Part shown: in pieces, positions 13,516-52,548 of the stretch
How the letters are laid out: every line of letters starts with the position of its first letter
Numbering within the stretch: the stretch's first letter is position 1
Assembly (NCBI GenBank): GCA_051294375.1
Contig: CM119269.1
Span: 21,650,038-21,714,037, forward strand
Origin: Paraspadella gotoi
Lineage: Eukaryota > Animalia > Chaetognatha
DNA: 64,000 nt
Reading direction: 5' to 3'
Notes under the pieces: generated by a model
Told to the model about the DNA's origin: nothing
Databases searched by the model: none
What the model saw: only the letters and a program-made list of their open reading frames with translations
Program-made: the position numbers and the translations under genes

Positions 13516-13539
13516 GATTAGAATTAGATTTTATAAAAG

Positions 13540-14306: not shown

Positions 14307-14452
14307 CTGACAGGAATCTTTCCCTCCTGCCTCCAATCCCGCGCATAAATTACTGTCCCAAACTCTTCCTTTGTAAAATTTATACGTGTTGCATTTCGTT
14401 GGACCGAAAACTGGAAGCGTCACTTCTTGCAGAGACGTTGGAAGTTCGCCAT
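14307..14452 (-). CDS. Serine protease exon
   Basis: (Y)GELPTSLQEVTLPVFGPTKCNTYKFYKGRVWDSNLCAGLEAGGKDSCQ|gtaaga; Asp in the S1 pocket (DSCQ) implies trypsin-type specificity. Confidence 0.92.
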
Positions 14453-14518
14453 CTGGCGGGGCAAAGATAAACGAGAGAGAAGGAGAGAGAGAGAGAGAGA
14501 GAGAGAGAAGAGAGCGAG

Positions 14519-14554
<36 letters not shown>

Positions 14555-15314
14555 ATGGATATCAAAATAAAACGCGAAGAAGAAAAAAGGAGAAAGAAAG
14601 TGAAAAAAAGCAAAGGATTATAATTTTTTCTTTATAGAAATTTTAAAAGAGAAGACAAATAGGCACTATTTTTAAAAAAGGCCCCATTTTTGTTACTAAT
14701 TCCTAAATTTAACCCTATTTTTTTTCTAATTATTTAATCTAATCTCAAACCTTAATCCTTCACCCTATTTTTTTTAATCTATTGCCTAACCCTTACCCTT
14801 AACCAAATCCTTAAACATAAAAATAGATTTAATTCTGAAATTAAGATTGGTCGCTTTAGGAAAAGATGGCCGACAGATTTATAGTGAGTTTCACTTGAAT
14901 GATTACAATTGAAAAAGTGAAAAAGTTTGTTCCATTTTTTCTTCTTTTTAAAAAAAAATAGTTTTCCTCTCTTTTTCTCATTTTAGAGTCTTGATGGAAT
15001 TACGAGCTGAATGCCTCTCTCTCTCTCTCTCTNNNNNNNNNNAGAGAGAGAGAAAGGAAATAAGAAAGAAAGAAAACACTCTCTCTCAAAAAAGAAGAGA
15101 ATTTGAAGTTTGAGGAAGAAAAGAAGAGAGAGAACAAGACAGGTTCGCCATTGTCTTAATGGAAAGTCATTGTTCCATTTGGACCAAATCTATAAATCCT
15201 AAAGAATTCCGTTTCGATCCGTCTTCATCTTTTTGCAACAAAACAGAGAAGAACGAGGATAGAGAATGAGAGGATGAGAGAGAGACAGAGACACCGTCTC
15301 AAAAACAATGTCTT

Positions 15315-15390
<76 letters not shown>

Positions 15391-15524
15391 AAGACGAACA
15401 GTGATTGAGTGAGTGAATGAATGGGTGAAAAAGAGAGAGACAGAGTAAAACAGAGAGAGAGTGTGTGAATAAACGTAACATAGATAAAGAGAGACAAGAG
15501 TCAGACAGAGATAGAGACACTCAC

Positions 15525-15651
15525 AGTCTCTGAGTCTCCCCCACCCGGCGACTTTGCATTGCATCTCTTGGAATTGATCGTCGACGTTTGGAAGACAAAT
15601 TGAGTTGACGGTCAAATCCTTTGTAGGCAGCGCCCCTATCGGAGAATCTAG
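15525..15651 (-). CDS. Serine protease exon
   Basis: ttacag|LDSPIGALPTKDLTVNSICLPNVDDQFQEMQCKVAGWGRLRD T|gtgagt; phase 0/1. Confidence 0.92.
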
Positions 15652-17506: not shown

Positions 17507-17632
<126 letters not shown>

Positions 17633-18211
17633 TAGGAAAAAAGTATATGACATAATTCATTTATTCAATAAAAAGTATAAAAAACATGGGTAAAACATCA
17701 TGATGACATTCTCAATATTTGGTATACCCTTCCACGGCATCAACTACTGCCTGCCTTTGTCTGGGTATGCTCTTATACAGCAAATTGAGGTATGACAGTA
17801 AAATGTTTTTCGAGATCTTTAACGCAATTCTGCGCAGCCCCGATATTAATGTTGCGCATCTTTCCCTCTTTTCTGAGAGCGATAATAATAGTTTTTTGAA
17901 CCAGAAAGAGGTGCAAGGCCTTTAGCATTGCCAAATTAAAAAATAGTTAAAAAATAACTAACTCTATTTAAAATAAAAACAAATAACTAAATACCAAAAA
18001 TGGTGGAAAATAAAATACTTTTTTTTCACCATTTTTCATTTGAAGTAAAAATAGTTATTTGCCTGTAACTTCTAAACGATTAGTCAAAAAAAGGAAGCTA
18101 CTGAAAGGAAATTCAATATAGATTCGGAAACATTCTTTTTTTTTTTTAAATTAAATAAGTTTTCTAGTAGATATCTTTTATTAAAAATGTCATATTTAAA
18201 ATTAAACTTAC

Positions 18212-18362
18212 TTTAACGAGAGCGATATCGTTCCTGTTCATATAAGGGTCGTAATTCTCATGAACAATAAGTTTTTCAACTTTTCTCCAAATTTCTGTTC
18301 CTTCATCTGCGACCAAATCGTGTTCAGCGAGAAGGACCTTCCAGTTGGATGGCTTGTTGAAT
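18212..18362 (-). CDS. Serine protease exon with catalytic Asp
   Basis: FNKPSNWKVLLAEHDL...VEKLIVHENYDPYMNRNDIALVK|gtaagt; phase 2/0. Confidence 0.92.
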
Positions 18363-18363
18363 C

Positions 18364-18412
<49 letters not shown>

Positions 18413-18539
18413 GAAAAATAGCGGGAGCATTCAAATAATACATTTTCATCGTCGTGCAAACTCCCAGAAAAGCTCTTTCAGCGAAAAACAAAGTGCACAA
18501 TACCCCTCCATCCCCCTGGCTATTTTCCCCCTTCCTGAC

Positions 18540-18765
18540 CCCAAAAAGCAATGCGCCGCTGTGAGGACGAAGCTGGGATGAATCACAGCTCCACCGCATT
18601 GGTGCTCGTCGATTCCGTAGTCGGCGTCTTCGACCCACAATGACGCCAACCACGGGAATTCGTGTGGGCGCGCCTCCACGCCACCCACAATCTTGTCCGG
18701 TGCATCTCGTGGCCGGTTGTTGGTGATACCATCCGGACAGCTGGCAGGATTTCTGAATGAGTCGG
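18540..18765 (-). CDS. Trypsin-like (S1A) serine protease, exon with activation site and catalytic His
   Basis: ...DK|IVGGVEARPHEFPWLASL...HQCGGAVIHPSFVLTAAHCFLG, then a gtcagg donor; acceptor either at 18766 or 18753. Confidence 0.92.
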
Positions 18766-18838
18766 CTGAAGCGAGGTAGTAAGATAGATCCGCGGGAAGG
18801 AATGTCATCTCTCTCTTCTCTCTCTCTCTCCTCTTCTC

Positions 18839-18870
<32 letters not shown>

Positions 18871-19044
18871 GTCTCTCCTCTCGTTCTCTCTCTCTCTCTC
18901 CTCTCCTCTCTCTCTCTCTCTCTCGTCTGTCTTCTCTTCTTCGCTCTCATCTCTCCTCTCTCTCTCTCTCTCTCTTCCTCTCTCTCTCTCTCTCCTCCTC
19001 TCTCTCTCTCTCTCCTCTCTCTCTCCCTCTCTCTCTCCTCTCTC

Positions 19045-19081
<37 letters not shown>

Positions 19082-20049
19082 CTCACCGCTCATTTTCCCG
19101 TCGTCTCCCTCCAGTCAAGCGCGGCGTCAGCTATCCCCGCGTCAAAGAATTCAACAACAAACAAAACAAAAATCATATCTATTAAACCCCCACTACACCC
19201 TGTTTTTTATATTTTTTTAAATGCGGGATACTTAGGGAAAAAATAAACGAGTTGATAACACGTTCTATATTTATACATTATTTAACATCAAATATTAAGT
19301 ATATAACAATTCTTAAATCTATGTTTTTTTTTGTGAATGTACGTAAAAAATAAACTTCAAAAAAAAAATTCTTATTTAATTTTTTGATTTATTGCCAACA
19401 TTGTTGAAGAAATAGTATGATAAATTGACAAGTTTTTCATCTATTAGTGCCAAAATAGCCATTGAGCATACACACGCGAGACTCACCCGCGGCTGGCTCA
19501 CACTAGACGGACGCATTGCAATTACATTATTAAATTTTTATACAGTGAAAAAAGGTCCATTAAGAAAAGAATTTCTATACTGCTCACTCCTCCATTTTCT
19601 GCTGTTATCATGGTAATTTCTTTTTTTAATAACGAGATTCCGTCCCGCGTATTTAGCCTGAGAACACAGAAAAAACTCGAGGGAAAGACAGTTTGTCATA
19701 AAAGACAAATTTATCAAATCTTTACATTTGAAAACAACATAAGGACAAACAAAATTTATGAATGTGGCAAATTCTCGCATTGGTTAATTTGGCTCTGAAA
19801 ACACAAAGCTGAAATACATCTTGCTGAATAATGATTTCGTCGGTATTGATAATTAAACTATAGCCGTACTTGAACAATTTATACACAATTAAAATTAAAT
19901 TGGACTTTTTTTCAACGTTGTCTTACTTATTAATTCCATGGGACCATATAAATCCTATATATTATTATATTTTAAATAAATATTCAATAAATATTCTTAA
20001 TATAAAATAGACCTCTGATGCAACAAAACTGTATCTCTTTTCCTTTCAG

Positions 20050-20402: not shown

Positions 20403-21339
20403 AGACGACGACGTGTCCATCACCCACAACAACGAATGTAAGATATTTTTTCAAGATGTGATTCATTGATGAAGATGTTATTTTTTGGAATTCTTTTTCT
20501 GCCTGCACGTAAAGACCGCAAAAAATTACTACTTCAATGAATCACCAAATGTCTAACGAACCTAAATTATTTTCATATTTTTTTTAACGAAGATCAGTTT
20601 TGTAGGGAAAAAGGAACGTTTTAATTTTTATTTAGGTTAAGAAATAAATCTTTAAATAAATTTTTTAATAAATTTTGATAGATTTGTAAATAAAAACAAG
20701 ACTGAGCAAACTATGCCGGATCTGCCCACAATCATTAGCGGTAAGCAGCTGATAAGATAATTAATTAATTAATTTATTAATAAATTAAATAAAATAAAAA
20801 TAAAAAAAATAAAAATATTACAAATTTTTAATTTTATTCATGTAAAAATCGTTTTCCAAGATTTCTTTAAAAACAAAAGGCGGCGCCAGTAGTCGCTTAG
20901 ATTTGATTTTTAACAAGTGAGCAACAAACTATAGGCAAGTTATAAGCGTTTTTAACTTACGTGGGACAGACCGACGGACCGACATAACGACGGACCGACC
21001 GACCGACGGACCGATCGACCAACCGAAGTGACTTATAGAGTTGCTCTGCGAGTATTAATTAATCAAATAATTAATAAGTTAATAAATCAATTAATCAATT
21101 AATTAATAAATAATTAATTAATCGGTCAATTAATCAATCCATTAATTATTCAATCAATCAATTTGTAAATTAATTAATTATTAATAAATTAATCAATCAA
21201 TCAAGTCATCGTCGTCGTTGCTTTTGTTGTGGTAAGTAATGAAAAGACCTAAAAACAAACATTTAGGATGAAATTAATTAATTTATTAATTCAATTAATA
21301 TTTTAGTTTATATAGTTTGTATTAATTAATTAATTAATT

Positions 21340-21695
21340 ACTGCTAATGATTCGTGATCCAACATTGTTTGCTCAAACTTGTTTCCATTTTAACTCATTT
21401 CCACTCGGACTATTCTATCGAAACTTGATTTCCCACTCAAATACACACTTTCCTACCCACACACAAAATTTAATTTCAATCACGAGTAATTGGTGTTTTT
21501 TGCTAAGGTGGGTCCGACAAACATACTGACAGACAGACAGACGGACGGACGGACATCATTTTTTTTTTTTTGCATAATTTATCATAATTTGATGTTCTGA
21601 CTTGATATAAGTGAATGCCCGACAAGATTGAGGGGGCGGACCGACGGACCGACAAAGTGAATTATCGAGCCGGAATCTGCGATAATTCCGACGAA
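21340..21695. mobile_element. Helentron/DINE-1-like non-autonomous element; relatives at 16110-16720, 20690-21050, 44240-44380, 51580-51720, 52090-52400, 60232-60345
   Basis: (GACA/GACG/GACC)n microsatellite, a conserved gcataatttatcata...ctgacatgatataagtgaatgcccgacaagatt block, and a terminal short hairpin (tatagagtcggaat...ttccgac) running into an A-tract in some copies. Confidence 0.55.
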
Positions 21696-27020: not shown

Positions 27021-27744
27021 TAAAACTCCCCAATAAAATAATTCTTTATGGGTCTGGCAAAAAAGAAACTTTTTTTCCTTGAGCTCAAGACATCGATGAG
27101 GTTCCAATTAGCCAAACGATTATTGGCGTCTCAAGTTTAATTCCACTGGGAGAGTATGGTAGTGAGGGGGTGAGGGGGTGAGGGCTGGGCTTTGGAGGGG
27201 GGCTAAGTGGGCGTGCCCCGGCGTGGGGAATGGAGGGAAAAGGTGAATATGAGGGGATGGGTGGACCTATGTTTTGCAAAAAGAGGATGGATGCTGAGAT
27301 CTAGGCCTCCATCACTCTTAAAAGATAATGACCTAGCAGGTCCCTGCAAGTTTTCAATCTCGACTCTCTCACAGTCTCGTTTATTCATTCCAAAAGTAGC
27401 TGGCTTCTCTATCGATAGTGGTATAATATTTCAAAGAATTATAAAATTAAGTATAAAATTACCACTTCCTTATAATTAAGAAACAACTTTCACAATTAAA
27501 TGACGTTAAGGATCTAAGGACCTAAGGTGGCTTCAATCAAACCTTTATGAGTTTCAAAAATCTAGTAATAATAATAATTTTTTTATAAACACAAATAGGT
27601 TAATTGGTTTTAAATGGAATTTCGTATTATAAGAAGGAAGCTGTAGTAAAAAGAGAGAGGAGATATGAAAATTGTATTGATAGGGAGAGAGATGAGAGAG
27701 AGAGAGAGAGAAGAGGCAGGAGGAGAGGAGAGAGGAGGAGAGAT

Positions 27745-31344: not shown

Positions 31345-34038
31345 CGCGCTATACTGCGATATGCTGCGATTCGCGAATGAGATACTGCGATGCGGTGAGA
31401 TGAGAAGTAGGGGCATCGCGAATAAATGCTGTAAACTGTGTTGGCGTGATCGTGCCGTGGCCAGTGGCACTCTGGATTGGTGAACATGTGCTGCTGGAAT
31501 CTTTAGCTGCTACCGTGAATGTATAAAGGGTTTTAAATGACAGACTAGATAAAAAAAACTGTTTAACAATTATGCCTTAGAACGTATCAAGATATCCGGA
31601 TTACTTAAATATTCTGGGATGCTACAATAAAGCGCGATGCATTAGAAAGCGAATTTCGAAAAGTCGAATCGGCATGCGAGCATGGCATGGTAATATCTTG
31701 GCAAAAAAGTCACGGTGAAAGTGACGCAATTCAATCCCTATTGCTACCTATTCAAGTTATTGTAAAACGCATAAGCAATAATTATCAACTTTTTAAAAAA
31801 CTAAACCACGTGAGTAATTATTAGTCGAACTTTTACTATTTCCTATTTACTTATCTTTTTATTTCTGAATTAGATATTTTTTTCCTCAATCAAAAACTTT
31901 TTAAATCATTCAGTTAGTTTCAAGACTTAGCTTATTAACATTTGGTTATGATGCTAATTTATTATGGCGGTTGTTTTTTTTTTTTTTTTTTTTTTGCGAT
32001 CCACACCAAATCTCATTTCAAAATTTGTTGCCAAAAATTAGTCTTTATTTTCAACATAGAGATGATCTTTGTAATACATGATTATGTATTAATATTGCCA
32101 TAAACTTTTTGATTTTATATAGCACGCTGAGTACACGGATTTCAGAATGGAGAACAAAATCATCATTGAAACTGTAGCTCTAATAGTTATTAATTTTTTA
32201 TTAAATTTGTTTAATTCTCTTATCTTTTTTTTAATTAAATTACTGGTGATTTTTTTTGCTGAATAATTTTATTAGTAAATGTAACAAAGATAAAAAATTC
32301 TCATCAAAATGTATTTATGTCGGTAAGATATTCCTAGCTAAATCTTACAATACCCCAGACTAAAATCCGCGTAGATCGTCAATGCCTAAAATTGAAAAAA
32401 AAACAAAAACAATATCATGAATCATTTTGTTTTATTACTTATTATGTTTTCTTTTAAAAAAACATTCATTTCTTTCAATACAAAGCTTAGTTTTTGTTTT
32501 AATACCTTTATTGTAATACTTTCCCCCGCACGTACTATTAGACGAAATGTTGCAATCGATTCTAGGGTAATAGGTTTTATGCAAATCATTTGTTCGTTGC
32601 TAATAAATCATTTTTTTGAATTATTTTTACATGAACATTCGTTTCCTCACGACAACATGACTTCTTCCGCCTCAACTGGGTCTAACTACATCAACCCCGT
32701 CCAACCCCATCAGACTCGCCACAGTCCAGCAGCAAAAGTGAATCTCATTCACAATTGTTTTGTTTCACGCGAAGCAAGAAAATCACTTGTGAACTTTTTA
32801 CGATTAGACTTCATGACAAAAAAAAAATTCGGCTCATATTTCACGTATCATATTGTACGCTGCATTGTTGAATATATTTTAATCTACGTTCAAATTCATA
32901 TAGAAAATAATAAAGAAAATTGTCTATTATAGTTTGAAGGTTATTGATGGCAAAGGTTATGTAGTTCTTTGTTTAATAATAATTTAAATAGTTTGAAGTT
33001 ATTCCCAAAATTTGATGGCGAAAAAACAATTAGTGTCAGAATAAGTAGTTAAGTACTCAAATAAATTTTTTTTGTTGCTAGTATAACAAAAAACAATTAA
33101 AATTAACAAATATTTTTTTTTAAATAAATTTAATTAAAAAAAATTACACGAGGGAAAAAAAGTGTTAGCGATTTAAGGGTAACAAAGTCAATGAATCAGT
33201 GAAAATCAGTGAAAAGTCAGTGAAAGAATCTTTAGTGAAATCTTGCAGTGACTTGCTTTGAATTTATCTTGTACTATAAGTAGATGGAGGCTTTCGGCTT
33301 AATTAACCATAGCCAAGTCAGTTATTGAATGAATATAAAATTTTTAAGTTTGTTGTACCAATTTAACACAAATTTCGGGCATTCAAGCCGAATTCATTGA
33401 TTATGATAATGGGTTTGAGTCAGTGTAATGGTGTGTTAGCATGTATAATTAACTCCGACTTTCCACTCAATTGCTTGATTCACATCTTGCCTCAATCGTG
33501 TGTCCCGAGTTCAATCCCAGAGAATCCTGATTTTATCATAAATGTAACCAGCCGCGACATGGGGCGGACACTGAAAAACCTCTGCCCTCTTCGCCCCGGG
33601 TTTTCACTGGCGATGTCTCGCCAAAAGGAAATCAATCGAGAAAAATAACAACAACAACAATAACAACAACCGATCGAGTCACGATTTCCATGAGATTTGA
33701 TTTTCTGGTCGAAGGCTGATTTAATGGGACGCTGCCGCTGCCGCTGCCCTCCCCGACGCCGCCGCAGCCGAGCTGGAGGGTGTTGAGGAAAGTCAAGCAG
33801 CGGAATCCGTTTTTGATTTTATTCATGAATCGATTGTTTTTTAGCCCAAGAAAGAATAAAAAAACTGATATCTGGAGGAAAGGAAAAAAATGAGAAGGAA
33901 AAAAAAGGAAAGGGAAAGTTAAAGAGAGAAAGATAAAGGGAAAAAGAGGGAAAAAATAGAAGATAATATCCCATTTTTAAGGGGACAGAAGATAAGAAAA
34001 AAAAAAAGAAAGAAGGAACCAATAATTCTGAAGGATGA

Positions 34039-34084: not shown

Positions 34085-34531
34085 CAAATAAGTAAGTAGA
34101 CAGGGATTTCGAGACGAAATCTAAGTGAATTTTATACCTTCAGAAAATTGATCATAATAGAAGACGGTGTCAATTCTTGGGGCAGAGTGAATCAATACAG
34201 GTTTGAGTTCCAATTCCTACAGATACATCGGATCGCAGGTCATGGTAAAAATCACCGGCGGATGGAAGCCCATCCGATCATTGGCCAGTTCCATTTGTCT
34301 CTTGACCAATGAGAATGTTCCATTCTTCTTCCGGCGGATTTCACCCGAGTCGTTGATCCGATTTAGATTATGGAGTCTTGATTCCTCTGCGATTAGATTG
34401 TCATCACAAATGGTCGGTCGGTCGATGTGAGAAATCACGTGAGAACCACGAAAAGGATCATATTTAGATAATTTTATGATACTTATAAATTACATGTCGT
34501 CAAATATTCTGGGAAATAATAAAATAAACAG

Positions 34532-34780
34532 TTATGGCGGACTAAAATCCACCAACCGTCCATCAGCGGACATTGGTGCCGGAGGCAAGTCATTCGCCTC
34601 CCAACCCAAAGGTCCGGGGTTCTAACCCGTTGGTCGCCTCGCAGTTACGAGGGACGTAGCGCTTAACCCGCCAGTAACACGGTGTTACAGCTTGATCCAA
34701 AGCTCAGGGACTGATTATATTGAACGGTTCTGTCACTAATACATAACCATAATTACTGTCTCTTCACAGTGTTATTAATT
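34532..34780 (+). mobile_element. Second independent copy of the tRNA-twister repeat (twister ~34641-34715, partly mutated)
   Basis: Same modules; P1 hexamer AGCGCT; substitutions in T1, P3 and P4. Confidence 0.78.
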
Positions 34781-35368
34781 TATTTTTTAAAGGATGGAGG
34801 CCCTAACCTATCTAGGCCTGTTGAAAGTCAAGGGCAAGATAGCTTATTTTTTGAACGAATGGCTAATTTTTGTAGTATTAGTTGTACCAATTTCAACCTC
34901 GGTCTTTGAGCTACCAAAAGATAAAAATTCTACGACAGTAAGTAATTATTAAATAGCTGGATAGCTTGATTTTGCACTGCTCTATTAAAATCGAGTTAAC
35001 ACTTGCTGTGTAGCTAAATTAACAGATATTTTGCCAATTATGATTATGAAAGATAGAGATATAAAAATACGTAGAAAAAAGGGGAAAAAATTTAACGGCA
35101 CCATTTCCCTAAACTTGTACCAAAAGTTTAATAACCAAACCTCGCCCTCATTCTTAACCTTTACGTAATCCTCACCCCTACTATCATTCCTAATCCTAAT
35201 CTTTAACCAAATCTCAAAGTAATTACCTAACCGAATCCTTATCCCTAATCCTTATCCCTAATCCTTATCCCTAATCCTTAAAAAGCTAATGAAAAAACAG
35301 TAATTATTGTTATATGAAATTGGTACAACCAATATAAAAATTATCCATTCATTTAATAAATAAGCTAT

Positions 35369-35590
35369 TATGGTGGACTAAAATCCACCAACCGTTCATC
35401 AGCGGCCATTGGTGCCGGAGGCAAGTCATTCGCCTCCCAACCCAAAGGTCCGGGGTTCTAGCCCGGTGGTCGTCTGGCAGTTAAGAGGGACGGGGCGCTT
35501 AACCCGCCTGTAACATGGTGTTACAGCCTGATCCGAAGCTCAGGGACTACTTACAATGAACGGTTCTGTCATTACCACTTATCAATAATT
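35369..35590 (+). mobile_element. tRNA-headed, twister-ribozyme-containing dispersed repeat (best copy)
   Basis: 5' hairpin TGGTGGA-ctaaaa-TCCACCA; tRNA-like module 35402-35473 (acceptor GCGGCCA/TGGTCGY, CTCCCAA loop, AGGTC variable loop, GGTTCTAGCC B-box-like T arm); twister-like module 35476-35551. Confidence 0.8.
35476..35551 (+). ncRNA. Type-P5 twister ribozyme-like motif; predicted cleavage U35500/A35501
   Basis: GG-GA-CGG..UAA-CCC-GC-C[UGUAAC/GUUACA]G-CCUGA-UCCGAAGC-UCAGG; T1 CCG/CGG, T2 GC/GC; P5 gcagtt/gact.c closes the ends. Confidence 0.8.
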
Positions 35591-35601
35591 ANNNNNNNNN
35601 N

Positions 35602-35736
35602 CAGAATCGTTCAATATGAACAGTCCCTGAGCGACCACTGGGCTAGAACCCCGGACCTTTGGGTTGAGGAGGCGAATGACTTGCCTCCGGCACCAATGGC
35701 CGCTGATGAACGGTTAGTGGATTTTAGTCCACCATA
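35602..35736 (-). mobile_element. Inverted copy of the tRNA-twister repeat with the ribozyme core deleted
   Basis: Reverse complement of hairpin and tRNA head joined directly to gctcagggactgtt at a GC(T) microhomology. Confidence 0.72.
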
Positions 35737-37267
35737 CTAACTTAATTCTGTAATTAAACTAAAATAAGTCACTTTTAAAAATTATGGCCAATTTATCCTA
35801 TAAAATGCATAGTGAATAAAAGGCAAATAGAATTAATTATAGAATAATTCTTAACCTTAACCTTTAATCTAATCTTTAACTAAAATTAAATTAATTCCGA
35901 ATTTGAGATAAAATGAGGTGTTTAGGTAAAATAAGGCCAAATCGCGTGGGTCTGTGAGGCTATCGGTCTGACCTGACCGTTAAACTGTTTTGAGAGTTAA
36001 AGCTATCATACAAGTAAACCTTTTTGGAGAAGCAATTATTTTCGAATCCAGTCGACATTCCAGTTTTAACGACAAAAACAAAAATTTTAGTTTTTATGTT
36101 TTTATGTCACATTTTTTATTAGATTGTGTCACTTCTAGTATTTCCTTTGCTTCTGATTAGTAACTGAGTCAAAGAATTGGGACCCCTAGGGGTCAGACTT
36201 TCTCCAAAGGTCGCCCCACTTTGTCTACCTGCTCCTAAAGATTAGAAGAAAAGACTGGAGAAGAAACTAAACTCCATAGTTTACCTGCTGTACAGTGTAA
36301 AATTTACATTATTTTATTATTTCATTACTTTATGACAGATTTAAAATATAATTTTGGGCTAAAAGGGAAAAAATGGAAAAAAAATAACTTGAAAACTCCA
36401 TAGCCTAGCTCTAGTACATATTCAAAATTATTTTATTTTCAAATGACAGCCAAATAGATTCTTGTTTCAATTTAATTGCTCATTCGAAGTTATCAATAAA
36501 TCATGTTATGCTAAAGAAAGAAAAGTTAAAACTATTGAACCAGACCAGAGGTGGACGAACCGTCATAAATATCTCTGACTCTGAGAATTAAAATTTCGTT
36601 GATTTTCGAGGCAACTTTGCGTCGTCAAATCGTCAATTAGTGTCTAGCCTCTCAGCTCCTTTGCGAAATTATTTTGGGTATTTTTTTTTTTAAATATTTT
36701 TTTAAACTTTTTTAAAATTATTTTTGATTGCCTGCTAGCCTCCCTAGGGTTTCTTAGTCCCGAATTGGGACCCTGGAAGGTCTTCCCCACCACGACCTTC
36801 AATTGACAATTTTCATGATTCAAGGTAGTTAACCCCCCCCCCCAAAAAAAGGTGTTAAGAGATGCGTATCATGATTTGAAAACCGGTTTTCGCTTAGAAA
36901 GAGAAATTGTCTCCTTCCTTTTTCGAATTAAAAAATCCGACATGAAAACGAAACCCTTTTAAATTTTAAAATATAAGTCAAATTGTATTTATTTATAATA
37001 ATTAAAATATAATAAAATATAATTAAAACATTATTATGGTACGAAATTACACATACATTTTAGTAAGCCTTCTTAACTGATATTGTAACGAAAGATTATG
37101 TAAAACTACGGAGAAAGACTAAATGTTTAAAAGTAACGGGAGTAAGAAATTTCAATCACGTTATTTCGAATTTAACTATCCATCTTTGAATTCGTGATAG
37201 TAGAGATATTAATTTAATTGACAAATACATAATTATACCGTTTCAGGTTTTATGACTTAACTAAACA

Positions 37268-38960: not shown

Positions 38961-41689
38961 CTGGGCACGAAGTCATTGGGGAACAATCCAGTGAACCTGG
39001 CAATCCTTCGAAAACTTTTGGACAACTATCCCATCAAGTGAGTAAGCTATGACTCCTTTCGACTTGGAAGACGGATGACTTACGAATAGATAGCGAGCAA
39101 ATTATATGGCTCCGGTTTTTCTGATCATCTGCATTCCTCATTTTTATATTGTAATCTTTTTTCTATAATAAGTAATGCCGCCCACAATCTCGGTGCCCCC
39201 TTTATAACACAGAAAGTACAGTTTTAATAATCTGGGTGATAGCAGATGCTTAGCAACAAACCAAACGTAATCAAAGAATTCTTTATATACATCTAGAAAT
39301 TGATTAAGTATATAAATTGGACTTTTCAAGTCCGCTGCCGAGCTTGATTAGAGTCAGACGCCTCGTACGCATCAAGTACCTGCTTATTATCGATGAAGTG
39401 GTATAATATTACAAAAACTGTTTCATTCGCATAAACAGACGACACTCTCCATCAACAGTAATGTATGTAATATTCGTAAATGACGTAACACAGAATCCTT
39501 TATTGCCAAGACGGCCCACACGGGAAACGACCGGACCACGAAAACACTGGCGCAGCTGGCACTGAATTACACGTCGCCAAGCTGAGTCTTTATTAACGCA
39601 TATGATCATGCAGCGTTGTCGAAGGCTATCAACGGCATTCTGGACTATGACAAAACTTTGCTGCATAGGCAGCGACTCTTTTGGTGCCCAAACACACTTT
39701 ATCAAATTCATTCGGACACGAGCAGAGTTGATGCGTACAGCCGCGCCTCTTTCCGGCAGCGCGACTCTGCGGGGGGGATGAGGCCGCAGCTACCCTCGAC
39801 CTCGCTCTCTGCTTTTCCCCAACGGCCACGCATGACCTCAGACGCTCAGATCCAATTGGTTTTTCTTCGTCCCGCCGCGCTCTCACGGATTTCTTCCGGT
39901 CCGTGGCAGAGCCACAAAGAAGACAACAACCAAACTTCACCTTTTCATCCCTGCTACACATCGTTTTGCTCCTCACCGCTCTGTATCAATTATTCTATTA
40001 ACCTTTATATCATTGTCATTGCCAGTCCGCATAAAACCTGTTCTTTACACCCTATGTCGTCGATCTTCTAGCAATTAACTTTGGTTTTGATGGTGGACTA
40101 AAATCAACCAACCGCCTTAGCAGCGCGGCCAATCTGGTGGCGGAGGAGCACATCTCATATTGCCTCCCCACTCAAACAGGTCCGAGGGTTCTTAGCCCGG
40201 TGGTCACCTAGCAGTTAGAGGGACAGGTGGCTACAAAGCCTGATTCCGAAAGACTCAGGGACTGCTTATATTGACACGGTTACTATCACTAACATATAAC
40301 AATCATATTACTGGTCTCTTACAAGCTTTGATTAATTCCTATCAGCTTATTTGGCTTTGTATAGTATGAATAAAACAAATCTATCACTATTTTGTCTACT
40401 GACATTCCTAATCTTGATTACTAATTTTCCATAAATGTCTAATTGGTCTAAATCTGATCAAAATAGATCACAACGGTGGCTGATCTGCGAACAGTACGGC
40501 ACCACCTTTGAACTGTCCAAGAAACAAAGTTTTAGGCAAAACAGATACAATTCCCGAAGATAAACTAAGTTTGAGCAAAGAATCGCCGAACTGGCCACGA
40601 TCATTAGCGGTAAGTCTGAATTAATTAATCTAGTTAAGCTGAATTACATTAAATTCGAAATCCCGCGACATTCTTTTTTCGGCTCCTTTTTCATCAACTG
40701 ACGCGACACAAAAAAAAGCAATCGACGACCGTCTGATAGGCGCAAACGACGACAACTAATCGCCGAATAACGATTAATGGTGATTGGCATTACTTGATTA
40801 ACATTGATTGATTGATTCGATTGATTAGATTTGATTAAATAACTAATTAATCACTGATTGAAATTCATATGAATTGAATATGACTTGAACTAATACTAAT
40901 TATTGATTCTAGTTAATAATTAATTGATTTATTAATTGAAAGAATTTAATTAATTGAAATTAGTTGAAAATTATGTTGACTAATATGAATTAAATTAACT
41001 GATCCTAACACTATTTGACGTAATTAATATATTTCGCAATTACATCTTAATATGAACAAGAAACAGCATAATCAATATAGTGAAAAAGGTTTTTTTGTTT
41101 TTTTCATTTAAACTCATTATCACACTCCAGACGAAATTCCAGTCGACAACTCCTGAATTCATCAGCTTACATTTCAAGTGCAACTAGCCGCCCTTATACC
41201 TACGAGTAAAGTATGGCTTATCAAAGCTCACAGCGGGGATGACGACGGACGGGACGCGGACGGACCGGAGAGAGCGGACAGTCCGTCTTTTTTTTTTTGC
41301 ATAATTTAATACATTGCGAAAAAGCTTTCTTTCTTTTCAGTTGAGTTTCAGATACCAGAAAATAAACGACGCACAGTCATTTTCAACAACCGATTATGAA
41401 TTTTCTATTTATGAGCAGAAACATCGTTTCAGCGTTTCCATCAGCCCAGCCAAAATCGCGCCACTGATGAAGGCTTCGCATGAACAAGCCGAACCATAGG
41501 TCCCTGTATCAAAATCAAATAGTGTAAAAAAAAACCAAAAATTGCAAAATCATAGAACATGTTATTCTGACTTTCAAGAAACAATAGTTACATATGTTAA
41601 ACCCATTTATTTTTCTTATTTTGTTATTAATATCTCCACCAGAGAGACAATGACCCTTCCCCCACCTCCTCCCCCCACTCCTTTCACAG

Positions 41690-42052
41690 ACCGCCAACGT
41701 CTCACGCTTTCACGGTTTCCACGTTCACACTCACGGCGACATCTTCACCGACGGATGTCACTCCGCCGGCGGTCACTTCAACCCGGACAAAAAACATCAC
41801 GGTTCACGTGATAACAAACACGACGAACGTCACGTGGGTGATTGGGGCAACATCGAGGTTCGTCCCGACGGCACGGTCACCGCCCAATTCGAGGACGATC
41901 TGGCGCGGCTGGTCGGGTCCAAGGGCGTTTTGGGCCGGGCCATCGTGATCCACGCGGGGCAGGACGATCTCGGACGTGGGGGCAACGCAGGGTCCAAAGC
42001 GTCGGGAAACGCGGGACAGAGACTCGCATGTTGCGTCATCGTGGCAGCTTGA
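41690..42052 (+). CDS. Cu/Zn superoxide dismutase exon 2 (intact copy)
   Basis: cacag|TANVSRFHGFHVHTHGD...GCHSAGGHFNP..HHG...RHVGDWGNI...GRAIVIHAGQDDLGRGG...SGNAGQRLACCVIVAA*; Cu/Zn ligands, the disulfide Cys pair and the active-site Arg are present. Confidence 0.93.
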   Translation, partial: TANVSRFHGFHVHTHGDIFTDGCHSAGGHFNPDKKHHGSRDNKHDERHVGDWGNIEVRPDGTVTAQFEDDLARLVGSKGVLGRAIVIHAGQDDLGRGGNAGSKASGNAGQRLACCVIVAA

Positions 42053-43175
42053 GACCTGGGGAAGGTCTTGGGGAATCCTTGGAACCTGGAATCCTTGAAA
42101 CTTTGAAACTTCAAAGACAATCTCTTCGACTTAAGAACCGATGATTAAAAGAATTATTCATTTTTACTGTATTATTTCATTTTTTATTGTAATTTATAAT
42201 ATAATTGCATCTCGCTTAAATAGAAATACAGTTTTAATTGGTATAAAGTTACAAACCAAATAAAAATTCTTTATTCATTCTAAAAATTATTAATTATAAA
42301 TGGGCTCTTACAAGTCCCTGCAAGCTTTTAATCAAGACTCTCGCACAGTACCTGCCTTATCTATCGATGAAGTGGTATAATGTTACAAAAAATGTTTCAA
42401 TTGCATGAAAGGACCACTTCCTCAAGTAATGTATTAATATTGTATGATAACCAGAATCCTTTTTCCAGACGCCACAGACGACGCCAAAACTGCAGTGACT
42501 ATTACCCTCCCGTTATTCCTCGGCTCACGGATTTGGACTTGACAAACTTTGTGCATCNNNNNNNNNNNNNNNNNNNNNNNNNNNNNNNNNNNNNNNNNNN
42601 NNNNNNNNNNNNNNNNNNNNNNNNNNNNNNNNNNNNNNNNNNNNNNNNNNNNNNNNNNNNNNNNNNNNNNNNNNNNNNNNNNNNNNNNNNNNNNNNNNNN
42701 NNNNNNNNNNNNNNNNNNNNNNNNNNNNNNNNNNNNNNNNNNNNNNNNNNNNNNNNNNNNNNNNNNNNNNNNNNNNNNNNNNNNNNNNNNNNNNNNNNNN
42801 NNNNNNNNNNNNNNNNNNNNNNNNNNNNNNNNNNNNNNNNNNNNNNNNNNNNNNNNNNNNNNNNNNNNNNNNNNNNNNNNNNNNNNNNNNNNNNNNNNNN
42901 NNNNNNNNNNNNNNNNNNNNNNNNNNNNNNNNNNNNNNNNNNNNNNNNNNNNNNNNNNNNNNNNNCATGGTCTCGTCTCCCGGGCTTCAACCGGGTTTCT
43001 CGTCGTGGCCGTAGCCACAGAGAACACAACAATTCAACTTTCATCCTCGTAACATCGTTTTGTCTCTTACTGTGTAATCATTATTTATTCAGACCTTTTT
43101 ATATCATTGTATTGAGCCTCGACAATAAACTGTTTACACCCTAATGTCGTGATCTTTCTACAATTAATTTGGTTT

Positions 43176-43420
43176 ATGTGGGACTAAAAATCCACCAACC
43201 GTTCGCAGCGGCCATTAGCTGCGAGGCTCATTTGCCTCCCAACTCAAAAAGGTCCGGGGTTCTAGCCCGCGTGGTCACCTAGCAGTTAAGAGGGACGGGG
43301 CGCTTAAACCCGCCCGTAACACGGTGCTTACAGCCGATCACGAAGCTCAGGCGACTGTTATATTGAACGCGGTTCTATCACTCTAACTCATAACAATTAT
43401 TATTGTCTCTTCAGTTTGAT
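43176..43420 (+). mobile_element. Third full-length locus of the tRNA-twister repeat (noisy re-copies of it at 40090-40335 and 50560-50785; re-copies of the other loci at 45511-45770 and 46361-46451)
   Basis: agcagttaagagggacggggcgcttaaacccgcccgtaacacggtgcttacagcc...gaagctcagg.gactgtt. Confidence 0.75.
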
Positions 43421-44230: not shown

Positions 44231-47200
44231 CTTTGTCTTCGTTTCCTGACATAATTTATCATATTTTTTGTTCTGACATGATTTAAGTCACATACCGGCA
44301 AGCTTTTGGGTTGGGACCGACGGACCGACAAAGGTGAATTATAGTAGCCGAGATCTGCTGAAGCAAGTTCCGGCTAAAAACAGATAATTTTTTTAATTTT
44401 GTGATCCTAACAGATCATGCCATTAACTAACCAAACTTGAATCATTTTTTTAATTTGCATCATTTTTTTAACTCAAATGATTTTTCAACTGCATTATTTT
44501 TTAAATTCACACATTTTTTAACTGCATCATATTTTTAACTCAAATCTTTTTCACACTCGGATCATTTAAACTCTGACGTTTAACATGCCATTCATTTTTT
44601 ACACTTCGACATTACTTATACCAAATTGCTACTGTCATTTTTTTAACTTGCATCATTTTTACAAATTGCATCATTTTTTTCACTTTAAATTAATTAAGTC
44701 GAGCATTTTTGATTAAGCAATAAATAATAAAAATTAGTCAATTTTTTTTTATGCAAACTCATTTTCACTCCTTCATTCCATCTAAACTATATATCCTGCT
44801 CAATCTCACACTTTCCTACCACACACAAATTATTTCATCTTAATCTATCCATAACACAATTAGTGATTCTAAATCCATCGATTAATTATAGGTTAAAATT
44901 AATAACAATACAAAAGATTTTAGTAAAATGTGACTTATGTTTCCTTCAATAAACCCTACATTTTTACTATCCAAACCTTTATTATTCAGCTCAATCACAC
45001 ACCTTCTCCTAAGCCACAACACAAAAGAATTTCATCTCAATCCATCCATCCAATACACGCAGCTACTCTCTCTCTTNNNNNNNNNNNNNNNNNNNNNNNN
45101 NACGAAATCTAAGTGAATGTCGAAGACGGTTACATTGTTCAATTCTGGGCGGAGAGTGGACAATCACAGGTTGAGTTCCAATTCCTAGCAGTACATCGGA
45201 TCGCAGCTTCATGGGTTAAAAATCCCGCGGATGGAAGCCATCCATCATTGGCCAGTTCATTTGTTCGCTTGACAATGGAGAATGTTCCATTCTTCTTCCG
45301 GCGGATTTCACCCAGAGTCAGTTGATCCGAATTTAGATATGGACAGTCTTGAATTCCTCTTTCGATTAGATTTGCATCACACACTGGCTCGCGTCGGTCC
45401 TGATGTTGAGGAAATCAACGTGACAAACACGAAAAAGATCATATTTATGATTAATTTATGATACTTATAATACATCGTCGTAATATTCTTGGGATCAATA
45501 AAATAACGAGTTATGGCGGACTAAAAAATCCACCAACCTGTCCACCACGGAATTGGTGCCGGAGGCAATCATTCGGCTCCCAATCCAAAGGTCTGGGCAT
45601 TTTAGCCCCGTGGTGGTCGCCCTCTCGGCATTACGGGACGTAGCGCTTTTAACCCGCCTATGTTTAACGGTGTTACAGCTTGATCAAAGCTCAGGACTGA
45701 TTATTAAACGGTTTCTGTCACTCAATAGCATACCTAATTTACTGTCTGTTCCACATGTTATTAATTTATTTTAAAGGATAGGAGCCACGAACCTTATCCT
45801 AGGCCTGTTGAGTCAGGTCAAGATAGCTTATTTTTGGAACGAACATGGCTATTTTTTGTATTTATGATGTACCAATTTCACTGGTTCTTTGAGCTACCAA
45901 AATTAAAGAAAATTCTACACGGCTATCAGTAATTATAAATAGCTGGTACTAGCTTGATTTTGCAGCTGCTCTATTAAAATCGAGTTAACTATTGCTGTGT
46001 AGCATAAATTAACGTATTTTGGCCAATTAATGGATTATGAAAATAGAATATAAAAATATAGATAAAAAGGGGAAAAAATTTAACGGCACCATTTCCCTAA
46101 ACTGTTACTCAAAAGTTTAAATAACCAAACCTCGCCTCATTTCTTAACATTTATCGTAATCCTCACCCTACTTCATTCTATCCTACATCTATTAACCAAT
46201 CTCAGTAATTATCCTTAACGAATCCTGTATCCCAATCCTTATCGGTTTACCCTAATCGCGTTATCCCTAATCCTTAAAAAGCTAATGAAAAAACAGTATA
46301 TTATTTTTATATGAATTTGACAACATAGTAAAAATTATCATTCATCTTAATAAATAAGCTATATGGTGGACTAAAATCCACAACACGTTCCATATCACGA
46401 GGCCCCATTTGGTGCCGGAGGCAAGTCATTCGGCTCCCAACCCAAAGTCCGGTGGCCACTATATGAGCTGTTAGGGTGGCTGACGGAAAATATTCACAGT
46501 GGGCTCCGCTTATCGAGGCCAGAACGACTTTACACTATATGAGCTAGTAGGTGGATGACGGAAAATAGTTCACAGGCCTCGCTAGTAGATTTTGATGTAG
46601 ATTTGTAGATTTTGTCCGCCATACTAACTTAATTCCTTTATTAAACAAAATATGTCAACTTTTAAAAATTATGGCCCAAATTTTCCATGAAAGTGCAGTG
46701 GAGATGAGATAAAGGCAAGATTCAGGGAAATCTAATTATAGAATTAATTCTTAACTTAACTTTAATTTTCCTTCTTAATCTTTAACTAAAATTCAAAATT
46801 AATTTCGAATTTTGGAGATAAATATGATTTTTTGGTAAGGAATAAGGCCCAATCGCGTGGGTCTGTGAGGCTATCGGTTCTGACCTGACCGGAACTGTTC
46901 TGAGCAGTTTAAGCTATCATTACAAGTAAGACCTTTGGGAGAAGCAATTATTTTCGAATCTCGAGTCGACATTTCCGATTTTAACGACAAAACAAAAAGA
47001 TTTTAGTTTTTATGTTAGTCACGATTTTTATTAGCATTTGTCACTTCTAGTATTTTCCTGTTGCTTCGATTAGAACTGACGTCAAACATGGACCGCCTAG
47101 GGTCAGACTTCTGCAAGTCGCCCCACTTTGTCTACCTGCTCCTAAAGATAGCAAGAATAAGGACGGAGAAGAAACTAACTCCATAGTTTACCTGCGTACA

Positions 47201-48229: not shown

Positions 48230-49670
48230 ATGACTCCAATAATCGCTCAATTTTTGGGATTCCAGCATCGCGATCAATCGATTGATCGTCGCCGTCATCG
48301 TTCTCGCAGTTCGATCGTCCAGATGGCTGACAACGATTCTGCCACCAGAATGCATCTTGCATGTGGGCCAGTAATCAAGCAATAAGCGGACATGCAAAAC
48401 GCGCCGAGATAATCCGATCAAAGCAAGCGAGATCACTGAAGAGTCGGACCATCGGCTCAACAAAGTTCGCCGTCAATCTTAATGGGTTCAAGGTGGGAAG
48501 TGGGGAAGAGATTGAAAATGAGGATTAACTTGGGAAGAGATGAAAATTGGGATTAAAATTGGGGAGCAGATTGAAAATTGGATTAAATTGGGAGAGATTG
48601 AAAATTGGAATAAATGGGAGAGATGAAATATGGATTAATTGGGAAAGATTGAAGAATTGGGAATAAGTGGAAGATTGGAATTGAATTAAATTGGAGAATT
48701 GAGAATTGGGGATTAAATTGGGGAAGAATTGAGAATTGGAATTTAAATTGGAGAGATTGAGAATTGGAATAAAATGGGGAAGCAGATTGAAAAATTGATT
48801 AAATTGGGAAGAGATGAAATTGGATTAAATTGGTGAGAGATGAGAATTGGATTAATTGGAGAGAGTGAAAAATGGTATTAAATTGACGGAGAGATTGAGA
48901 ATTGAGGTATTAAATTGGGGAAGAGATTGAAAATGGGATTTAAATTGGGAAGAGATTGAGTACAATTGGATGAATGGGAGAGATTGAGAATTGGAAATTA
49001 AATGGGAAGAGATTGAAAATTGGAATTAAATTGGTAGAGAGTGAGAATTGGGATGTTAAATGGGGAAGAGATTGAAAATTTGATTGAAATTGAAATTGAA
49101 TTAAATTTTTCTTTGATAGAATTAAAGTTTTAAAAAAAAACCACAAAGATTGCAAAATCACTAAGAACATATTATATCTGACATTTCAGAAACAATATTA
49201 CATATTGTGTAACCATTGTATTTTTCTTATTTGTTTATTGAGATTATCGTCCACACGAGAGACAATGACCGGCTTCGCCCACTCCTCCCCGCGATCCTTT
49301 CAGCAGACCCAACGTCTCACGCTGTCACGGTTTCACGTTCACACTTCACGGCGACATCTTCACCTGACGGATGTCACTCCCCGGCGGGTCATTCAACTCG
49401 GACAAAAAATCACGGTTCACGTGGATAAACGAACACGACGACGGTTCACATGGCGTGATTGGGCCAACATCGGTTCGTCCGACCGGCCGGTCACCGCATT
49501 CGAGACGATCTGGGCGCGGCTCTGGTCGGTCCACAGAGGCGTTTTGGGCCGGAGCCCATCGTGATCACGCGGGGCACGGACGATCTCGGACGTGGGGGCA
49601 CGCCAGGTTCCAAACGTCGGGAAACGGACAGAGAACTCCGCCATGTTCGCGTCTCCGCTGCCGCCCTTGA
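48230..49670 (+). pseudogene. Frameshifted copy of both SOD exons inside the duplicated block 45102-~52200
   Basis: 48230-48493 matches exon 1 and 49307-49670 matches exon 2, with many 1-nt indels; flanks also duplicate 34113-37560 and 41530-45075. Confidence 0.75.
48495..49100. repeat. ~28-30 bp minisatellite (aattgggattaaattggggaagagattgaa) in the SOD intron; also 37541-38140
   Basis: Directly visible tandem units. Confidence 0.9.
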
Positions 49671-52548
49671 GACCCTGGGAAGGGTCTCTGGGAATTCCTT
49701 GAACCCTGGAATCTTGACCACTTTGAAACTTCAAAGCACAATCTCTTCGATTAAAACCGATGATTAAAAGAATTATTCATTGTTACTGTATTATTTCATT
49801 GTTTTATTGTAAATTTATATATAATTGGCATCTGCGCTTAAATAGAGAATACAGTTTTTAATTTGTATTAAAGTACAAACCAAATAAAAATTCTTTATCA
49901 TTTAAAAAATTATTTAATTATAAATTGGCTCTTACAAAGTCCCTGCAAGCTTTTTAATCAAGACTCTCGCACAGTACTGCCTTCTCATCGATGAAGTTGT
50001 ATAATGTTTACAAAAAAATGTTTCAATTGCGTGAAAGACCACCTCCTCAAGTAATTGTTAATATTGTATGATAACAAAATCTTTTTCCACGACGCCACAG
50101 ACGACGCCAAAACTGCGTGACTATTACACCTCCTCCGTATTCCTCGGCTCACGATTTGGACTTGACAAACTTTGTGCATCAGCAGCGACTCTTTTGTGCC
50201 AAAGCACCCTTTATCAATTCATGGACACGGGCCAGAGTGTGTCAGCCGCGCCTCTTTCCGGAGACGCGACTTAAGGGGGGGAGAGGCCGAGCTACGTCGA
50301 CTCTCTCTCTTTTCCCTCAACGACCACCATGACCTCAGACCTCAGGTCATTGGTCTCGTCGTCCCGGCTTCAACGGAGTTTCTTCCGTCTTGGCCGTAGC
50401 CACAGGAGAACACAACCCAATTCAACCTTTCATCCCGTAACATCGTTTGGTCTCTTTACTGTTGTAATCATTATGTATATAACCTTTATATATCTGTTAT
50501 TGGCCTCGCAATAAACTGTTTACACCCTATGTCGTGATTTCTACAATTAATTGGTTTTATGTGGACTAAAATCCACCAACCGCTTCATCAGCGGCCATTT
50601 GGAGCCGGAGGCACATCACTTTGCCTCCCAACTCAAAAGGTCCGGGTTCTAGCCCGGTGGTCCCTAGCAGTAGAGGACGGGGCCCTTAACACGGTGCTTA
50701 CAGCCTGATCCGAAGCTCAGGGACTGCTTTATATGACGGTTCTATCACTAATCATAACAATATTATTGTCTTCTTCAGTTGATAAATTTCCTTTGTTTTG
50801 TTTGTGAATTAAAACAAAAATTCTCCTTTTGCTCTACTAATTAATTATTTGGTTTACATTTCATAATGTCTAATGTCTAAAATCTGATAAAATAGATAAA
50901 CAAGGTGGTTGATCTTGCGAAAGTACCACCCGCCTTTGAATTGTCAAGAAACCAAGTTTTAGCAAACAAACTTGCCTACGATAATTATGCGATATTATAC
51001 GATAATTATAATTATCGAAGATAAATAAGTTTGAGCAAAGAATGCGAATTCGCCCACGATCATTAGCGGTAATTGATTAATAATTAGTTAAGTAATTAAT
51101 TAAATTGATGCGACATTTTTTTCGTCTTTTCATCACTGACCCAACAAAAGCAATGACAACGTTGATGCGCGACTAAGACAATTAATGCCGAACGTGTAAT
51201 TGATTGGGCTACTTTATTAATTGATTGAATTTAATTGATTGATTGATAAAGTGAAATTGAATTGATGATGAATTAATTTATTGATTTGATAAATTAATTA
51301 ATTGATTTATTAATTAATTAATGATTTATTAATTAATTAATTGATTTAATTAAAGATTATTAATTAAATTATTGAAAATTATTTGACTAATTGATTAATT
51401 AAATGATTAATTATTTGAGTAATAATTATTATCTTTCAACAACGATTTGATTTTTTTATACCCGAAAACATGTTCAGCTTTCATGCAAACCAAAATGGCG
51501 CTGTGAAGGCTTGCATGAAAGCGCGAAACCTGTCCTGTTCATTAAAAATAATCAAATCGTTGTTGAAAAGACTTCGTCTTCATTTCCTGACATAATTTAT
51601 CATAATTTTTTGTTCTGACATGATTTAAGTCACTTACCGGCAAGCTTTTGGGTTGGGACCGACGGACCGACAAAGTGAATTATAGAGGCCGAGATCTGCT
51701 GTAAGCAATGTCCGGCTAATAACGATAATTCTTTTAATTTGTGATTCCTAACAGAATCATGCCATACTAAACCAAACTTGAATCAATTTTTTTAATTTGC
51801 ATCATTTTTTTAACTCAAATGATTTTTCAACTGCATAATTTTTTAAATTCAACATCATTTTTTAACTGCATTATATTTTAACTCAAATCTTTTTTCAACT
51901 CGGAATCATTTAAAACTTTGATCATTTTTATCACTTGCATCGATTTTTTTTACCTTCATAATTTTTTGCTACTCGCATCATTTTTTAACTTGCATCATTT
52001 TTACAAATTGCATCATTTTTTCACTTTAATTAATTAAGTCGAGCATTTTTGATTAAGCATAAATAATTAAAAATTCAATTTTTTTTTTATGCAAACTCAT
52101 TTTCACTCCTTCATTCCATCTAAACTTATATCCTGCTCAATCTCAACGTTTCCTAACCACACACAAAATTTCATTTCAATCCATCCATCCAATCACGAGT
52201 AATTGAAGTTTTTGCTAGGGGAAACGGACGATGGCTAGACAGACGACAGACAGACGGACGGACATCATTTTTTTGCATAATTTATCATAGTCGATTTATG
52301 ACATGATATAAGTGAATGCCCCACAAGATTGAAGGGCGACAGAACGACGCGACAAGTGATTATAGAGTCGGGTCTGCTGATAAAAAAAATTCGACCTAAA
52401 AGAATCAAATAAAAGAAAAGAAAAGATGGAGCTCGTCTTGGAAGGAGCGCTCACACACACGATTTCTCACACAGCCAAATTAAGCGAAATGGAGCTCTCT
52501 TTTTTCTTTTGTTCGGACCTTGGTTTGCAAGGTCTTTCTCTCTCAATT

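Follow-up and report, generated by a model that had tools for sequence, protein, structure and literature searches.

The stretch of Paraspadella gotoi DNA analyzed here, 64,000 nt in length and hereafter called the window, has the content of animal DNA: besides trypsin-like exons and exons of Cu/Zn superoxide dismutase, it contains long microsatellites, N gaps, and segmental duplicates rich in indels. The trypsin-like exons occupy 14172-19082 of the reverse strand, and the Cu/Zn superoxide dismutase exon (PF00080) lies at 41654-42052, with a frameshifted duplicate at 49100-49564; named animal matches to this exon reached no more than 58% identity, those from spiders being the best (56-58%). 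The segmental duplicates form pairs (34170-37969/45139-48820, 39641-44852/49131-52188, and 1-3573/4811-8387) that share 72-95% identity with many indels, and they are possibly uncorrected long-read sequence in the assembly. A further dispersed repeat, associated with a CAGA/CGGA microsatellite, occurs at 21392-21685, 44250-44361, 51591-51705, 52094-52383, and 60230-60344; we take it to be reminiscent of DINE-1/HINE elements.

An earlier note on this DNA described a repeat of ~230-250 bp at 35369-35590, in which a tRNA-like head is joined to a type-P5 twister ribozyme, and counted at least four independent insertions of it. The repeat, here termed F1, is real, and a BLAST search of 35356-35600 against the 64-kb window confirmed four independent insertions that share the 5' end TATGG and have four different 5' flanks. 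Besides the copy under study (35369-35591, forward strand), whose 3' end is lost in an N gap at 35592, these are a complete copy at 34533-34766 (forward, 88% identity, TATGG...CTCTTCA), a complete copy with indels at 43175-43413 (forward, 83% identity), and an inverted copy at 35602-35736 (reverse, 95% identity over 116 bp). The indels in the second complete copy may be sequencing errors. Both modules are present in the 35369 copy, as described for the unit, but the inverted copy has lost the twister core (about 35474-35538) and one strand pairing of the fold (T1, below) is broken in the 34533 copy, leaving one clean copy among the four. Further BLAST matches at 45511, 46350, 50557, and 40090 were rejected as extra insertions, being part of the indel-rich segmental duplicates. 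The region 35369-35736 holds two F1 copies tail to tail across a 10-N gap, and its duplicate (46452-46593) is garbled at the same place.

The boundaries of F1 proved to be fixed, with TA at the start and CA at the end. As read from the two complete copies, the unit measures ~234 bp from TATGG to CTCTTCA and so runs on past the point at which the N gap cuts the copy under study; its 3' end was defined from these two copies together with loose contig ends in public sequencing runs. The 5' boundary is sharp, as loose contig ends in those runs pile up before 35366-35369 and, in 261 contigs of run X2, the sequence from 35368 onward belongs to another repeat (F3) instead. The complete copy at 34533 is flanked on both sides by CAGT, an apparent 4-bp target duplication. 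It sits within an older copy of F3 in which the matching motif occurs a single time; the alignment of F3 to the left flank was reached by 4 of 300 shuffles and that to the right flank by none of 300. The copy at 43175 has GTTT on its right and GGTT on its left, but GTTT is found on the left in the duplicates at 50557 and 40090, consistent with a T having been lost from a run. An apparent 4-bp duplication was present in both complete insertions, the only two that can be read to their ends (the other two run into the N gap), one being exact and the other read through noisy duplicates. By our own arithmetic from base composition, the chance of a 4-bp flank match is ~0.5% per copy.

F1 is also abundant. 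Contigs matching 35330-35591 in four public DNA runs numbered 17,378, 3,390, 1,020, and 0, counts that include F3 contigs, the first 39 bases of the query being F3. Summed depth over F1 in run X2 was 4-5 million, compared to 155-268 for the longest pieces of that run, although such depth is no measure of copy number. Taken with the four insertions in 64 kb, the depth suggests a copy number on the order of 10^4. Relative to the family majority in the public runs, the 35369 copy departs at six places; the majority bases at 35476 and 35549 make helix P5 of the fold described below fully Watson-Crick, and the majority base at 35473 does the same for the first acceptor pair of the tRNA-like stretch.

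The repeat F3, in which two of the four F1 insertions sit (including the copy under study), is A/T-rich and ~260 bp long, with copies at 13263-13520 (reverse), 34778-34895 (forward), and 35310-35368 (reverse), and further places at 27303-27472, 10611-10752, 42340-42436, and 33322-33364. Its 3' part ends near TTTCA, resembling F1 in this respect, and its depth in the public runs is as high as that of F1. The sequence to the left of 35369 had been considered as a MITE terminal repeat; this was rejected, as it is F3.

Several parts of the F1 head were found where the earlier note had placed them. A 7-bp hairpin opens the unit (35371-35390), followed by the 5' arm (AACCGTTCA, 35390-35398) of a 9-bp inverted repeat whose 3' arm (TGAACGGTT) lies at 35557-35565, and the two arms are predicted to pair with a probability near 1 when the RNA begins at 35369. 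The tRNA-like stretch (35402-35474) contains an A-box-like motif at 35410-35421 and a B-box-like motif at 35454-35464, permits a 7-bp acceptor stem, and has a broken anticodon stem. The stretch and its boxes are present as described, but it does not qualify as a functional tRNA gene with a cloverleaf at default score: ARAGORN at default and Rfam both gave no tRNA here, and ARAGORN called it, as tRNA-Gly(CCC) with the anticodon stem broken, only up to 86% of the threshold, a level reached by 3 of 1000 shuffles. At 85% of the threshold there were 11 calls in the window, three of them F1 copies. The B-box pattern matched six times in the window and the A-box pattern 98 times. In the folded ensemble, the acceptor stem formed with a probability of only 0.06-0.29, and we therefore consider a promoter more likely than a folded tRNA mimic. 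The start of F1 precedes the tRNA +1 position (35402) by 33 nt, so that the hairpin would lie upstream of the predicted Pol III start.

Downstream of this head, descriptor matching and alignment identified a type-P5 twister-like fold at 35476-35551. Its helices are P5 (35476-35482/35545-35551), P3 (35508-35526), P4 (35527-35544), and P2, in which 35503-35505 pair with 35488, 35487, and 35485 and A35486 is bulged; the pseudoknots are T1 (35491-35493/35533-35535) and T2 (35506-35507/35538-35539). The putative general base, G35489, and the predicted cleavage site, U35500/A35501, placed by analogy with known twisters, agree with the positions given in the earlier note. A 6-nt linker, GGCGCU (35494-35499), takes the place of P1; it is complementary to itself at all six positions, and we predict that it forms an intermolecular helix. 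With the type-P5 twister of Rfam (RF02684), F1 shares the strand order, the G-A and U-A-A residues, the L4 pattern U-x-x-x-A-A-x-x, both pseudoknots, and P3, P4, and P5. It differs in its bulged 3-bp P2, its palindromic 6-nt P1, its T1 and T2 pairs, and an A-U pair that closes L4, a feature shared with a second family, F2. In known twisters, P2 comprises 4 bp, and the G-C pair that closes L4 is practically invariant (PMC5408937; PMC8501958, Table 1). The claim that F1 maps position by position onto the twister core consequently fails at P2, at the L4-closing pair, and at the P1 linker.

To judge how often such an arrangement arises by chance, we used a sequence-generic type-P5 descriptor allowing a 3- or 4-nt P2 strand, which marked four sites in the window. 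A stricter filter, set after the sites had been seen, retained three of them, as against one match in a single one of 250 shuffled windows, and the arrangement thus exceeds chance. The fourth site (56497; A/U-rich, without P1) was dropped as of a kind given by shuffles, which yielded 20 in 40 shuffled windows. The three retained sites have unrelated flanks and belong to F1 (35485-35545), F2 (60376-60436), and F3 (13327-13371, reverse strand). All three have a 3-nt P2 5' strand, a bulged second base in the 3' strand, and a 6-nt linker for P1, and the conserved G-A, U-A-A, and L4 residues of the Rfam consensus are present in type-P5 order. The F2 variant (60363-60447, forward) carries compensatory changes in T2, P3, and P4 and has a different P5, whereas the F3 variant (13316-13382, reverse) has no P3 and closes L4 with G-C; no tRNA-like head was seen beside either. 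T1 is CCG/CGG in F1 and CCA/UGG in F3, and T2 is GC/GC in F1 and AC/GU in F2 and F3. The first P2 pair (C-G vs. A-U), together with P4 and P5 throughout, likewise shows paired changes across families. F2 has one copy in the window, within a 150-bp stretch (60345-60493) that lies between parts of another repeat (matching 21572-21685 and 20690-20767), and this stretch may be an insertion or a capture.

Structure-preserving covariation was seen in the window sequences. In an alignment of four sequences (three of F1, one of F2), 80 of 88 cells were paired and four pairs were changed on both sides, a result reached by 2 of 500 shuffles, the structure having been derived from the same sequences; slid-structure controls paired 28-46% of cells. 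A covariance model trained on F1 and F2 found F3, which was outside the training set, at 22.8 bits. Run on 100 of 147 loci that share the sequence pattern, this model recovered, at E < 1 and on the right strand, 15 of 23 bona fide twister loci and none of 77 that had the pattern only. Conversely, a model built from 19 canonical type-P5 twisters placed three copies of F1 at the top of its ranking, though with only 13.5-17.1 bits and in the wrong register. A variant-specific pattern found no loci in viral contigs and seven in metagenomes, none of which passed the structural descriptor. Within F1 itself, G35489, A35490, and U35500-A35502 showed no variant at ≥4% in the three covered runs. On these sequence comparisons, we regard the F1 fold as twister-related beyond reasonable doubt, although P2 keeps it outside strict type-P5 membership and its cleavage is a prediction.

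The fold might nevertheless be a twister relic or nearly inactive, either kept for packaging or dimerization or carried passively in a young family. Rfam is consistent with this: there was no match at gathering score across the window, and at E ≤ 10 the five matches over 34300-36000 were unrelated chance matches, with none over 35465-35570, even though RF02684 was passed by 13 of 20 control loci fetched with the canonical pattern. The three departures from consensus, the single clean copy in four, and the fact that uniformity in a young family shows no selection by itself point the same way, as does nested folding, in which the F1 twister scaffold lies 7.8 kcal/mol above a competing hairpin. 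P2 probability in these folds was ~0 in F1, F2, and F3, compared to a median of 0.8 in 18 canonical controls (three of which were under 0.1), and a change in P2 length has been suggested to disturb the active site (PMC5408937). However, nested folding takes no account of the two pseudoknots or of Mg2+, twisters from which P1 is deleted still cleave (PMC5408937), and a phage twister that passes Rfam at 49.5 bits (L029) also has a 3-nt P2 strand. Considering also that the catalytic G, U-A-A, and L4 are kept in three otherwise unrelated families in which T1, T2, P2, P4, and P5 covary, we find a relic improbable. What monomer folding does argue against is an efficient monomeric ribozyme.

A different mode of action is suggested by the linker, which at 6 nt is too short to form P1 as a hairpin and yet is self-complementary in all four versions seen. 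Each of these (GGCGCU, AGCGCU, GGCGUC, and AGGCCU) is self-complementary at six of six positions, a property of 5.3% of hexamers. In cis the linker would yield two pairs closing a loop of 2 nt, and in trans six pairs; the usual minimum for a hairpin loop is three nt. The central linker pair swaps from C-G in F1 and F2 to G-C in F3, a swap that would be explained only by intermolecular pairing; were the outer pairs of the linker to form in cis, however, complementarity at the central one would arise by chance in 3/8 of cases. In folding without pseudoknots and Mg2+, the swapped dimer scaffold lay 10-13 kcal/mol below two monomer scaffolds. The unconstrained fold of two F2 copies was the swapped dimer, with the P2 register slightly shifted, while for F1 and F3 the lowest-energy two-copy fold was not the swapped twister and other dimers lay lower. 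We put at about even the odds that the fold cleaves as a domain-swapped dimer whose two copies share the palindromic P1. Hammerheads with a weak helix III in animal retrozymes and Penelope-like elements offer a parallel, in that a helix beside the cut too weak in the monomer is rescued by the pairing of copies (PMC7229834, PMC7761336). Theirs is another ribozyme class, and dimer activity has been shown in those reports, whereas for F1 it is predicted. A review of RNA dimers lists the VS and hatchet ribozymes, its main text being without twister (PMC7357161).

What kind of element carries this fold? The earlier note proposed a Pol III-driven SINE or retrozyme-like element. The promoter and the twister-type fold in a mobile repeat are supported, but the SINE label now appears less likely. 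In a reading close to that account, F1 would be a SINE-like or non-LTR retrozyme, the twister counterpart of schistosome promoter-plus-hammerhead repeats. Its transcript, made by Pol III or by read-through, would be cut by the twister, and a LINE or Penelope-like enzyme would insert it by target-primed reverse transcription. The tRNA-like stretch near the 5' end, the length of ~234 bp, and the very high abundance would all suit this reading. So would twisters at the 5' end of Perere-3 LINEs (PMC8501958) and the report of a link between animal retrozymes, which occur as monomers, and Penelope-like elements (bioRxiv 10.64898/2026.07.22.740005), as well as the two complete window copies, beside which we saw no internal LTR region, two-LTR copy, primer-binding site, or polypurine tract. 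However, tRNA-derived SINEs begin at or near the tRNA start, and the 33 nt that F1 carries upstream of +1 would be lost from a Pol III transcript. Its tail before CTCTTCA is neither poly(A), A-rich, nor a microsatellite or other simple repeat, and both of its ends are fixed. Animal non-LTR retrozymes are tandem units with a type I hammerhead; the window held neither a head-to-tail tandem of F1 nor an Rfam hammerhead, and the duplications reported for such retrozymes are longer than 4 bp (PMC7229834). Moreover, depth over the head of F1 was no lower than over the twister, and among the public-run matches listed no copies began at 35501 and no loose ends piled up there, which argues against insertion of a cut 3' product. 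We therefore treat a SINE-like origin as a possibility on the unlikely side.

Since F1 has TA...CA ends, an apparent 4-bp duplication, and 33 nt upstream of the tRNA start, a solo LTR fits better than a SINE. Our preferred reading, to which we give a probability of roughly 45%, is that F1 is the solo LTR of a small non-autonomous retroelement, i.e., a Helenus-type TRIM or LTR retrozyme, in which the tRNA-like stretch would act as a Pol III promoter and the twister would cut, probably in dimeric form, at U35500/A35501. It is built on the observed repeat with its fixed ends and two modules, the covariation across three families, and the palindromic linker. Against it, the pair of LTRs around an internal region that defines such elements was absent beside the two complete copies. 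The first bases of F1 are a point of difference, as the Helenus LTRs seen nearly all start with TG and one with TA; several end in TA.

Neither the fixed ends nor the sequence ahead of the promoter calls for an RNA step, and F1 might instead be a non-autonomous DNA element (Helentron/HINE-like or other) that captured the tRNA-like and twister modules as cargo and is recognized through its terminal hairpin and inverted repeats. The subterminal 9-bp inverted repeat and the terminal hairpin do recall HINE anatomy in reverse orientation. In HINEs, however, the 5' arm lies 2-4 nt from the end and insertion occurs between T's with no duplication (PMC4067079), whereas one F1 arm lies ~45 nt from its end, TT is not found on both flanks, and apparent 4-bp duplications were observed. 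F1 also has no terminal inverted repeats for a cut-and-paste transposase, and a ribozyme fold conserved in three families points to an RNA stage. A DNA element thus seems very doubtful to us.

If F1 is a solo LTR, its replication can be pictured as follows. The terminal hairpin would belong to U3, and Pol III would start near 35402 in the 5' LTR. Since no run of four T occurs within the unit (the first lies 14-17 nt past its end), transcription could continue across a short internal region and enter the 3' LTR. Both twister copies in the RNA would then exchange halves, their 6-nt linkers pairing into one shared P1, and both would cut. The released RNA, with a 5'-OH and a 2',3'-cyclic phosphate, could be circularized by an RtcB-type ligase, which would restore one complete LTR together with the 33 nt that precede the promoter. 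Copying and insertion of this RNA, with a 4-bp duplication, would fall to a reverse transcriptase and integrase of the Gypsy type, and single units would arise either through recombination between LTRs or from short cDNAs, along the lines proposed for plant retrozymes.

Irrespective of its mode of mobility, F1 is an abundant repeat that combines a tRNA-derived, promoter-like stretch with a new twister variant common to F2 and F3. To our knowledge, the biological role of most genomic twisters is not known. A variant present in three abundant families supplies natural covarying constructs for a direct test, and current covariance models miss this whole branch of twisters in animal genomes. A dimer-dependent twister, if it exists, would parallel the double hammerhead, the cut firing only when two copies meet, and a two-LTR transcript or a packaged pair of RNAs could be the meeting place. 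Should the LTR reading be correct, LTR retrozymes would reach animals and could run on Pol III, and there would be a possible answer to the question of how the RNA ends are set in an LTR element transcribed by Pol III. As for novelty, the literature searched (mostly papers outside subscription journals) yielded neither a repeat combining tRNA and twister, nor an LTR element with a twister, nor a twister acting as a dimer, in agreement with the earlier note, and the only retroelement-linked twister there was that of Perere-3. The design in which a ribozyme follows a Pol III promoter is, however, already known with hammerheads in Schistosoma (PMC6765202), as is a tRNA inside an LTR, in Helenus (PMC10886601).

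SM-alpha is the name of a SINE-like hammerhead repeat of schistosomes. Like F1, the schistosome repeats, Sj-alpha among them, are short, abundant animal repeats with a Pol III/tRNA promoter and then a ribozyme (PMC6765202, PMC4918200). Theirs is a hammerhead, and they are often tandem, whereas F1 occurs as dispersed single units with fixed ends. The T-variant twisters of Perere-3 in Schistosoma mansoni (PMC8501958) share with F1 a weak P1, a home in an animal retroelement, and a similar P3 sequence. They are of type P1 with a 4-bp P2, and in their autonomous LINE they occupy the extreme 5' terminus, so that cleavage creates the end of the element; the predicted F1 site is internal. In plant LTR retrozymes (PMC4918200), the ribozyme lies in the LTR, 4-bp duplications are made, and replication proceeds via an RNA circle. 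A self-cleaving ribozyme in the terminal repeat and a 4-bp duplication (predicted and apparent, respectively, in the case of F1), solo copies, and the non-coding nature are common to both. In contrast to F1, the plant elements have a type III hammerhead and no tRNA-derived promoter in the parts of the account available, and their two-LTR form and circular RNA have been shown.

Helenus TRIMs/TRIMp3 of animals have a tRNA-like stretch in the LTR, 4-bp duplications, and solo LTRs (PMC10886601). F1 resembles them in having such a stretch, preceded by further sequence, in a short terminal unit, and in its solo copies, and its ~234 bp falls within the 120-323 bp quoted there for LTR lengths. It differs in that no ribozyme is described for Helenus in the accessible text, where hammerheads appear in the references of the main paper only, and in that an internal region with a primer site is not part of F1 as seen. 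Neither the twister L4 string nor an F1 string was found in the available Helenus data file, the line breaks of which limit such a search (PMC10886601). By eye, two LTRs in that file from gall wasps (Helenus-2_SyJa-LTR and Helenus-2_SyUm-LTR; PMC10886601 DataS1) contain, immediately 3' of the tRNA-like part, a motif resembling a type III hammerhead whose loops are complementary. It is conceivable, though we would hold it only tentatively, that a twister subclass outside Rfam, acting as a dimer through a palindromic P1, occupies at least three families, and that one of these is a Pol III-driven LTR retrozyme uniting Helenus and retrozymes, with the ribozyme class exchangeable between the wasp hammerhead and the twister.

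The loci used for comparison yielded a few further observations. In L029, the type-P5 twister spans 147-204, and a hammerhead-like CUGACGA...GAA motif lies upstream. L024 and L031 had been considered as precedents for a 6-nt P1 and were rejected, being junctions of directly tandem type-P1 twisters in phage contigs. Locus L145 carries two type-P5-like twisters ~350 bp apart.
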